Shown here piece after piece: positions 9,206-10,036 of a stretch of 25,150 bases of DNA. The notes under the pieces are model-generated. The model saw only the letters and a program-made list of their open reading frames with translations, was not told where the DNA came from and searched no databases. Origin of the DNA: a virus. How positions within the stretch are numbered: the first letter of the stretch is position 1; every line of letters begins with the position of its first letter. The DNA is taken from the IMG/VR virus record IMGVR_UViG_3300008050_000286; one strand, 5' to 3'. Made by a program: the position numbers and the translations under genes.

Positions 9206-9282
9206 GGGTTGTTAGCTCAAGTGGGCAGAGCACTGGACTCTTAATCTAGTAGATCTCGGATCGTGGCCGAGGCAACCCACCA
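9206..9282 (+). tRNA. tRNA-Lys(CTT)-like second copy with non-canonical T-loop ATCGTGG, CCA encoded
   Basis: Acceptor GGGTTGT/GCAACCC, anticodon stem CTGGA/TCTAG with loop CTCTTAA, T-arm CTCGG-ATCGTGG-CCGAG, A + CCA. Confidence 0.6.
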
Positions 9283-9290
9283 CTTCTTGC

Positions 9291-9364
9291 GCGCATGGTG
9301 TTTTAACGGTCTAGCATCTCTGGCTTCCACCCAGAAGGTCCGGGTTCGAATCCCGGTGCACGCT
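9291..9364 (+). pseudogene. Degenerate tRNA-Gly(TCC)-like gene (intact anticodon and T-arms, decayed acceptor 5' strand and D-arm)
   Basis: Anticodon stem TCTGG/CCAGA with loop CTTCCAC and T-arm CCGGG-TTCGAAT-CCCGG resemble bacterial tRNA-Gly(UCC). Acceptor GCGCATG vs TGCACGC pairs in only 3 of 7 positions. Confidence 0.35.
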
Positions 9365-9400
9365 TGCTTACTTTATCGAACTCGTTTGATACATAGAGGT

Positions 9401-10036
9401 ATGCATCACTACGTCTACGAAGTTCGAAACATTATCAATGGTCATGTCTACGTCGGAAAGCACACAACTGACGATCTCAATGACGGTTATATGGGAAGTG
9501 GAACAGCTCTCTCTGCGGCTATCGTCGAGTTCGGGCTTGAGTCATTTAGGAAAACTGTACTATCTCATCATGCCTCTGAGGACGATGCTTTTGAAGAAGA
9601 GGCTCTAATCGTTACCATGGAGTTCGTTGAGAGAGACGACACTTACAATCTTCGAACAGGAGGCCGAGGTGGTCGATGGGGCTCCGAAGCTCAGAGAAAG
9701 GGCGGGAGCCGCACTCTCAAGAAGTTGTGGGCTAATGATGACTGGCGAGAAAAGCAACGAAAAAGGGCGTCGGTCCGCTTCAAGAAGATGCACGAAGACG
9801 GAATCATGAAGCCTTATGACTTGTCAGGTCGACGACACACAGATGAATCAAAACGAAAGATTGGAAAGGCAAACAGTCAACACCAAAAGGGCTCGGGAAA
9901 TTCTCAGTTCGGCAAAGTGTGGATGTACAGCCTTGAAGAGAAGAGGTCTACTAAGGTCTCAAAGGACAGGGTCGATGAGATGATTCAACAAGGATGGACT
10001 CGCGGTCGAAAGATGAACTTTTCAGAGATTCAGTAG
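9401..10036 (+). CDS. GIY-YIG homing endonuclease
   Basis: N-terminal HHYVYEVRNIINGHVYVGKHTT...GYMGSG is a GIY-YIG motif. ATG 9401 follows AGAGG. The track ORF from 9263 is read-through of tRNA sequence. Basic C-terminal region looks DNA-binding. Confidence 0.8.
   Translation: MHHYVYEVRNIINGHVYVGKHTTDDLNDGYMGSGTALSAAIVEFGLESFRKTVLSHHASEDDAFEEEALIVTMEFVERDDTYNLRTGGRGGRWGSEAQRKGGSRTLKKLWANDDWREKQRKRASVRFKKMHEDGIMKPYDLSGRRHTDESKRKIGKANSQHQKGSGNSQFGKVWMYSLEEKRSTKVSKDRVDEMIQQGWTRGRKMNFSEIQ

Follow-up and report, generated by a model that had tools for sequence, protein, structure and literature searches.

A SegB-type homing endonuclease cassette behind an intact-looking tRNA-Gly(UCC) gene of a phage-like tRNA array: occupied and empty alleles

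The 25,150-nt stretch of IMG/VR virus record IMGVR_UViG_3300008050_000286 analyzed here (the window) is densely packed with tRNA genes, which all lie on the + strand and have small open reading frames (ORFs) in between; ARAGORN called 41 tRNAs and Rfam 35 at its gathering score. Within this 41-tRNA array, a free-standing gene located between a tRNA-Gly(UCC) gene (end at 9364) and a methyltransferase gene encodes a 211-aa protein (9401-10036, + strand; ATG at 9401, TAG at 10034-10036) which, judged by homology, is a full-length homing endonuclease of the SegB type with GIY-YIG and NUMOD3 domains. A 656-bp segment comprising the 36-nt leader and nearly the whole ORF (9365-10020, + strand) is present in some and absent from other related genomes. 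The explanation that we prefer, and regard as highly probable, is that this segment is a free-standing cassette of the SegB family which sits at the 3' end of an intact tRNA-Gly(UCC) gene and homes as inferred from T4 SegB. A preliminary description of this DNA had named a GIY-YIG homing endonuclease adjoining tRNA genes, and both the SegB homology and the tRNA-Gly gene upstream bear this out.

The empty allele was reached through a homologue of the methyltransferase with 89% amino-acid identity, which led to a 4.1-kb contig (L008) with 85-92% nucleotide identity to the window and no endonuclease gene. In blastn alignments L008 2638-2792 corresponded to window 9206-9364 and L008 2797-4123 to window 10021-11349, and instead of the cassette the contig contains only CCAC. 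The empty junction reads GGTTCGAATCCCGGTACACGCT, CCAC and TTCAGAAATTCAGTAG in direct succession, i.e. ACACGCT just before CCAC. A contig of another project (L089), 99.9% identical to L008, has the same junction, so the empty junction is not an assembly artefact; the comparison with a relative devoid of the GIY-YIG gene, which the preliminary description had proposed, was thus feasible and informative. A metagenome scan returned one contig only, of the L008 type. The cassette itself was found in the window and in four contigs from four public sources that are 99.9% identical to the window (L001-L004). Its left edge follows immediately after the discriminator U73 of tRNA-Gly, where the empty allele encodes CCA(C). 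At the right edge, the last five codons of the ORF and its TAG stop (10021-10036) lie within sequence common to the empty allele. The cassette is without a stop codon of its own: members of the family normally end with GRKMKF/W and a stop, and the window protein continues NF-SEIQ into the flank. The cassette is therefore a presence/absence polymorphism between related genomes, with the empty site intact.

The closest homologous cassette (in L005; 59% amino-acid identity) is located behind a different tRNA, Glu-UUC, where it likewise starts at the discriminator. Its leader, GCTTATTTTTATCGAACTCGTT..., is homologous to that of the window (9365-9400, + strand), and both share the left end GCTTAYTTT..ATCGAACTCGTT. 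The L005 cassette, sitting at a different tRNA, shows that leader and ORF travel together from one tRNA 3' end to another.

The arrangement of the empty allele corresponds to what has been mapped for phage T4. T4 segB is a free-standing GIY-YIG endonuclease gene in a tRNA cluster (Brok-Volchanskaya et al. 2008, PMC2330249); its product recognizes a 27-bp site where tRNA genes end at their 3' side, consisting of the T-arm sequence GGTTCRANTCC, a degenerate middle part and often CCAR, followed by the preferred cut, and in crosses with T2L the segB gene and the flanking tRNA genes were inherited at nearly 100% (PMC2330249). In the window, the canonical T-arm box of tRNA-Gly, GGTTCGAATCC (9343-9353, + strand), matches this core. 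In the empty allele GGTTCGAATCC is followed by 11 nt and then by CCAC, which is the layout of the published 27-bp site, and the insertion point lies 11 nt downstream of GGTTCGAATCC. By analogy with T4 SegB, GGTTCGAATCC of the endonuclease-free allele would thus serve as binding element. During a mixed infection, the enzyme would bind GGTTCGAATCC of an empty tRNA-Gly allele and cut near the CCA; repair of the break from the endonuclease-carrying genome would then copy the cassette together with neighbouring tRNA genes. With the CCA portion of its site replaced, the occupied allele is presumably cut less well, and its tRNA-Gly would need CCA to be added after transcription. A similar context is found in phage PP01, where segB starts 41 nt after a same-strand tRNA without encoded CCA and tRNA-Arg comes next. 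In the window, the tRNA upstream is Gly(UCC) and the leader has no late promoter TATAAATA, which distinguishes it from T4.

The assignment to the SegB family rests on several lines of comparison. The ORF matched phrog_314 ('homing endonuclease') at 2.9e-38 and Pfam NUMOD3 with 20.5 bits (cut-off 20.4) at residues 143-172. In BLASTP, the protein was 39% identical and 57% similar to PP01 SegB (E = 7e-51, residues 1-207 to 1-221), and tblastn yielded 836 phage records, with full-length matches in T4-like phages annotated as SegB or Seg-like. Altogether 81 homologues were found, many of them with PF01541, PF19835 (SegE_GIY-YIG) and PF07460. In an alignment of 29 sequences Y17, G19, E67 and N83 were invariant and Y6 nearly so, and the YVY...YVG motifs of the GIY-YIG domain as well as the NUMOD3 block H146..K151.KIG..N..Q.G.GNSQ.G were conserved. 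The window ORF retains these five residues and, overall, all 21 invariant and all 16 near-invariant positions of the family, including those aligning with Y6, Y17, E75 and N90 of I-TevI. A PDB search with the single ORF sequence gave no meaningful match, and the family profile was required: it matched the I-TevI catalytic domain 1LN0 over the whole domain (E = 8.6e-4, positions 4-85 to 4-92), and 1MK0 was matched as well. The domain order, GIY-YIG followed by NUMOD3 and a C-terminal GW.(K/R)GRK tail, is that of SegB of T4-like phages. With I-TevI, the protein has in common a homologous catalytic domain and a two-part build in which this domain is joined to a DNA-binding region of the NUMOD3 type. 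Unlike I-TevI, which is intron-encoded in T4 td and targets the thymidylate synthase gene, the element is free-standing at the end of a tRNA gene. Peptide scans of IMG/VR with the endonuclease and with the methyltransferase returned nothing.

An exact look-up of the 211-aa protein found it not on record, because public gene calls use an over-extended ORF. These calls start at GTG 9263 and give 257 aa, running through the upstream tRNA. The gene starts at ATG 9401, 36 nt after the last base of tRNA-Gly (9364); the preliminary description had the same start with a spacing of 37 nt. It had also stated that the ORF reads back through both upstream tRNAs. The frame is indeed open through all of tRNA-Gly but includes only the 3' half of tRNA-Lys, up to a TAA at 9242, and this reach is a mere absence of stop codons. 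A real 257-aa protein was rejected, as homologues align from the Met of ATG 9401. In three called homologues the N-terminus is extended by stretches that include strings such as VGSNPI, and wherever the locus was fetched, the ORFs with such extensions were located directly downstream of tRNA genes. The simplest reading of these extensions is that the sequence of the upstream tRNA has been translated, and the tRNA-derived N-terminus looks like a recurrent annotation artefact of endonuclease genes in tRNA arrays.

To place the junction in a wider context, the family was surveyed in 80 IMG/VR loci and three others. A same-strand tRNA ended at most 150 nt upstream of 72 out of 108 homologue copies. 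Among non-redundant tRNAs directly upstream of an endonuclease gene, only 9/60 had an encoded CCA, versus 363/539 of the other tRNAs (Fisher p = 3e-15); the within-locus expectation for the endonuclease-adjacent tRNAs was 33.9. When tRNAs at the end of a cluster preceded other non-tRNA sequence, CCA was encoded in 147/219 (p = 3e-13 against the 9/60). The hexamer TCGAAC, the reverse complement of the T-loop core GTTCGA, occurred in 16/62 leaders versus 0.42 in shuffles and in 1/121 tRNA-tRNA spacers; in the window it is located at 9376-9381 within the leader. The T4-type late promoter TATAAATA, absent from the window leader, was also enriched in the leaders (27/62). In leaders of homologues (L005-L088), TCGAAC often abuts TATAAATA or forms an inverted repeat with GTTCGA.

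Chihara et al. 2026 (PMC13096335) describe an association of SegB with tRNA genes across 296 phage genomes, the two being co-localised at distances of up to +/-1000 bp, and give RAWTSGAAC as a cleavage motif that resembles the T-loop. The tRNA association without isotype preference given there for SegB homologues was reproduced in the IMG/VR contigs. The start of the cassette at the discriminator and the lack of CCA in the adjacent tRNA (encoded in 15% vs 67%) go beyond what the consulted parts of that paper contain. TCGAAC is a candidate operator or second binding site, and by analogy with I-TevI it could act as an operator for autorepression. As a tentative extension, which we consider possible but doubtful, SegB-like cassettes might follow an insertion rule in which the encoded CCA is replaced after the discriminator, providing self-immunity and leaving the tRNA dependent on a CCA-adding enzyme, with the inverted T-loop core TCGAAC of the leader as autorepression operator or second binding half-site.

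Several observations weigh against homing as described for T4 SegB. The empty site has CCAC, not the CCAR of T4 SegB sites, and the site preference of the window enzyme may differ from that of its T4 relative. With the single sequence, Pfam GIY-YIG scored 18.2 bits, under the gathering score of 22.6. The Shine-Dalgarno-like GAGG of the leader (9396-9399) is only 1 nt from ATG 9401, and a simple scan of the leader (9365-9400) found no sigma-70-type promoter; a simple scan of the + strand of the cassette flanks likewise gave neither a sigma-70 promoter nor an intrinsic terminator. Canonical T-loops showed no significant excess in the endonuclease-adjacent tRNAs of homologues (52/60) over the others (436/539; p = 0.38). 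Moreover, the comparison relies on one diverged relative lineage, as L008 and L089 are of the same genome type, and the empty allele could have arisen by loss.

Selfish mobility could be secondary if the endonuclease were kept mainly for the benefit of the phage, because it drives recombination, or amplifies segments with tRNA and anti-defence genes. Chihara et al. 2026 report SegB-driven amplification of tRNA-Tyr and other anti-defence loci in phage T6 as well as the tRNA association (PMC13096335). The window array contains duplicated isoacceptors in ARAGORN (Lys-CUU twice, and Gln, Pro, Met and CUA suppressors), and the window and L008 arrays differ by gains and losses of tRNA genes. Against this, no tandem amplification around the cassette was seen in the window. 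In addition, the presence/absence polymorphism and the distribution of single nucleotide polymorphisms (SNPs) fit a mobile, loosely constrained gene: when the window was compared with L001-L004, 8 of the 21 SNPs were located in the endonuclease ORF, all in its 3' half (9672-10006; binomial p = 1e-7). This SNP cluster suggests a separate history of the ORF (recombination or re-homing) or relaxed constraint. A maintenance chiefly for phage benefit, which is compatible with homing of the cassette and does not exclude it, is in our view rather unlikely.

Alternatively, the cassette might be ancestral and the L008/L089 lineage might have lost it, the polymorphism then reflecting decay of an endonuclease gene and not recent homing. 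Homing endonuclease genes typically pass through cycles of gain and loss, and TTCAGAAATTCAGTAG, still present in the empty allele, could be a remnant; in the window it codes for the last residues and the stop of the ORF. What speaks against this reading is the clean, functional-looking CCA which follows the discriminator in the empty allele, as in most tRNAs of the array. Furthermore, the window protein runs four codons (SEIQ) into the flank, as expected of an inserted cassette lacking its own stop, and the homologous cassette behind a different tRNA in L005 implies movement between sites. Loss from an ancestral occupied state is thus unlikely.

It is improbable, too, that the ORF is an inactive relic, either on its way to becoming a pseudogene or coding for a DNA-binding protein that lacks nuclease activity. 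The Pfam GIY-YIG score under the cut-off would agree with a relic, and so would the three codons changed by the eight ORF SNPs (G91D, K118G and M136V) between genomes otherwise 99.9% identical. Four of these eight SNPs are synonymous, however, and the ORF is full length, collinear with SegB and retains the 21 invariant and 16 near-invariant positions, the equivalents of I-TevI Y6, Y17, E75 and N90 among them.

The tRNA-Gly gene next to the cassette (9289-9364, + strand; ending at discriminator U73, no encoded CCA) had been described as decayed, with a scrambled acceptor 5' strand and D-arm taken as consistent with endonuclease-associated damage or an insertion. ARAGORN at default settings called it as a cloverleaf, the minimum-energy fold gave the same cloverleaf, and the covariance check on decay came out the other way: the Rfam tRNA model scored it with 34.9 bits, above the gathering score of 29. 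This Rfam match is local (model positions 5-66) because of a mismatch at 4:69. The strand read as scrambled (GCGCATG, 9291-9297) had been placed 2 nt too far 3'; the true acceptor 5' strand is GCGCGCA (9289-9295) and pairs at 6 of 7 positions with TGCACGC (9357-9363), leaving one C4.A69 mismatch. The D-stem, GUGU/GCAU, includes two G.U pairs, and its loop is long and holds GG. In total 20 of 21 pairs are standard, the T-loop is the canonical UUCGAAU, and the 7-bp acceptor, D, anticodon and T arms, a 7-nt anticodon loop and U33 are all present. The identity elements of bacterial tRNA-Gly are G1:C72, C2:G71, G3:C70, U73, C35 and C36, and every one of them is found in the sequence.

The endonuclease-free allele has the same peculiarities. 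Its tRNA-Gly shares the atypical D-arm of the window gene, is mismatched at 4:69 as well (G4.A69), and again shows a local Rfam match of similar score (38.2 bits) and 20 of 21 standard pairs, with U6-A67 in place of the C6-G67 of the window. This compensatory change suggests that the acceptor helix has been kept, and the peculiarities are independent of the endonuclease, since they occur where the endonuclease is absent. As only one diverged lineage was found, no more than two sequences enter the comparison of the tRNA helices; column shuffles of the tRNA-Gly and tRNA-Lys pairs are without power at this number, and the pair counts are descriptive. Altogether, tRNA-Gly appears intact and working-looking from its sequence, neither decayed nor damaged.

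The preliminary description had further proposed the unusual T-loop box GGATCGTGGCC, seen in the genes at 8939-9028 and 9206-9282, as the recognition site. The box does occur exactly twice in the window (9007-9017 and 9258-9268), each copy being the T-arm of a tRNA or tRNA-like gene; with one mismatch allowed there are 3 matches versus 0.49 expected from shuffles. The second copy belongs to a tRNA-Lys(CUU) gene, the second of its kind in the array (9206-9282, + strand), which encodes CCA, has the variant T-loop AUCGUGG (A54:U58), was called by ARAGORN and scored 44.7 bits over its full length in Rfam. All 21 pairs of this tRNA are kept in the window and L008, with three compensatory changes; the T-stem carries such a change, and the T-loop AUCGUGG is identical in the two genomes.

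The first copy lies in a gene which is only tRNA-like (8939-9029, + strand) and outside the mobile element. Its acceptor stem measures 7 bp, its long variable arm copies a canonical T-arm (AAGGGTTCGAGCCCCTT), and a second, variant T-arm, CCGGG-ATCGTGG-CCCGG, follows. ARAGORN did not call it at default settings, and no Rfam tRNA match was found even at E <= 10; only with ARAGORN thresholds at 80% was it called as a 91-nt 'tRNA-Met(CAT)' with G33 and a C.A closing pair. It is conserved in L008 (about 2316-2405), where 1:72 has changed from A-U to G-C in a compensatory manner and the anticodon-loop region differs (CAT to CGC). One possibility is a chimeric tRNA gene or the scar of one, another a tRNA-like RNA that does not decode. 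An IMG/VR pattern scan for the double-T-arm tRNA-like element gave no matches.

The endonuclease-free relative retains the box GGATCGTGGCC, apart from a single G-to-A change where it lies in the tRNA-like gene. The box differs from the SegB core GGTTCRANTCC at three positions. Related T-loops occur elsewhere in the window, in tRNA-Thr(GGU) (11437-11510, ATCGTAA) and tRNA-Glu (8535-8606, ATCGATA). Among 651 distinct tRNAs of other phage arrays, 35 from many isotypes had A54:U58 and 12 had A54:A58; positions 54 and 58 covary (T:A 443, A:T 35, A:A 12, A with G or C 0). None of the papers listed in a literature search on A54:U58 T-loops described the class; only A54:A58 in eukaryotes was found. 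Since it is of a recurrent class, is kept in the endonuclease-free relative and deviates from the SegB motif at three positions, GGATCGTGGCC is best taken, from sequence comparison, as a structural T-loop variant (U54:A58 swapped to A54:U58) of two neighbouring genes and not as the target. The idea that variant T-loops protect against cleavage was unsupported (canonical T-loop enrichment tests, p = 0.38 and 0.79), and its further form, recurrent A54:U58 T-loops as cleavage-resistant tRNA alleles, was supported by none of our tests.

Taken together, it is very improbable that the endonuclease damaged tRNA-Gly and recognizes GGATCGTGGCC of the two upstream genes: the box is real and lies, in its two exact copies, 108 and 358 nt upstream of the cassette, T-arm recognition by T4 SegB is established (PMC2330249) and tRNA-Gly is the lowest-scoring of the 35 Rfam tRNA matches in the window and matched only locally, but it folds as a cloverleaf with one mismatch, its D-arm, 4:69 mismatch and local score recur in the endonuclease-free allele with compensation at 6:67, and GGATCGTGGCC persists there within a fully paired tRNA-Lys. 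The earlier interpretation is supported in two respects only, in what the gene is and, in general terms, in the idea that the enzyme targets a T-arm; the latter fits SegB biochemistry (PMC2330249), with GGATCGTGGCC not being the box.

If anything, the closest thing to a decayed tRNA near the endonuclease is a degenerate tRNA-like element at 10108-10182 (+ strand; ARAGORN thresholds at 80%), yet the endonuclease-free allele has it too. It folds as 'tRNA-Thr TGT' in the window and with TTT in L008, and a run of seven T follows. In comparison with L008, the surrounding 10037-10228 region looks more conserved than the coding flank, with hardly any differences beyond the junction; mean column identity was 91% in an alignment of 9990-10240 with L008, and the long blastn match through the methyltransferase gene showed 88%. 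An IMG/VR pattern scan for this conserved block downstream of the cassette gave no matches.

Upstream of the cassette, entire tRNA genes distinguish the two arrays: Glu-CTC and Asn-GTT of L008 (1487-1638) stand where the window has Glu-TTC (8452-8606), and L008 2574-2637 corresponds to window 9200-9205, with a 57-nt insert between tRNA-Asp and tRNA-Lys in L008. The encoded CCA toggles as well, being present in the second tRNA-Lys(CUU) only in the window and in tRNA-Gly only in L008.

The cassette resides in an uncultured phage-like element that is rich in tRNA genes, is not T4-like and has ~52% GC. INPHARED phage records contained no close relative of the window and gave generic tRNA matches only. 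Besides the endonuclease, PHROG and Pfam matches in the window include a nucleotidyltransferase (RlaP), a metallophosphoesterase, Thg1-like, release-factor-like and MVP-shoulder proteins. Three suppressor-type tRNAs (14731-14806, 14966-15040 and 16171-16243; anticodon TCA once and CTA twice) are found near a short release-factor-like ORF (13018-13632) with PCRF/RF-1 domains; suppressor tRNAs together with a release-factor-like gene are a familiar pairing in phages that reassign stop codons. An 896-aa ORF (4139-6829) had no PHROG match, and in its near-identical public copy a major-vault-protein shoulder domain (PF11978) was recognized along with a weak hit to Vault_3; such a vault-type ORF is unusual for a phage-like tRNA region. 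Finally, for an 87-nt tRNA at 3357-3443 ARAGORN gave a 2-nt anticodon ('ga'), with 43 bits in Rfam.

The tRNA-Gly gene, previously misread as damaged, is undamaged, and a mobile SegB-type element in a tRNA array is a known selfish element in a known habitat, with no sign of tRNA damage. No new kind of system is revealed, and the general association of SegB with tRNA genes is already published (Chihara et al. 2026, PMC13096335). The loss of CCA beside the endonuclease and the TCGAAC motif of the leader are small additions concerning insertion and possible self-regulation. As gene callers routinely extend such ORFs through the upstream tRNA, the results are of some use for the annotation of phage tRNA arrays. 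The occupied and empty alleles form a clean natural pair for a SegB-type endonuclease outside the T4 group, with a junction that fits the cleavage position mapped biochemically for T4 SegB.

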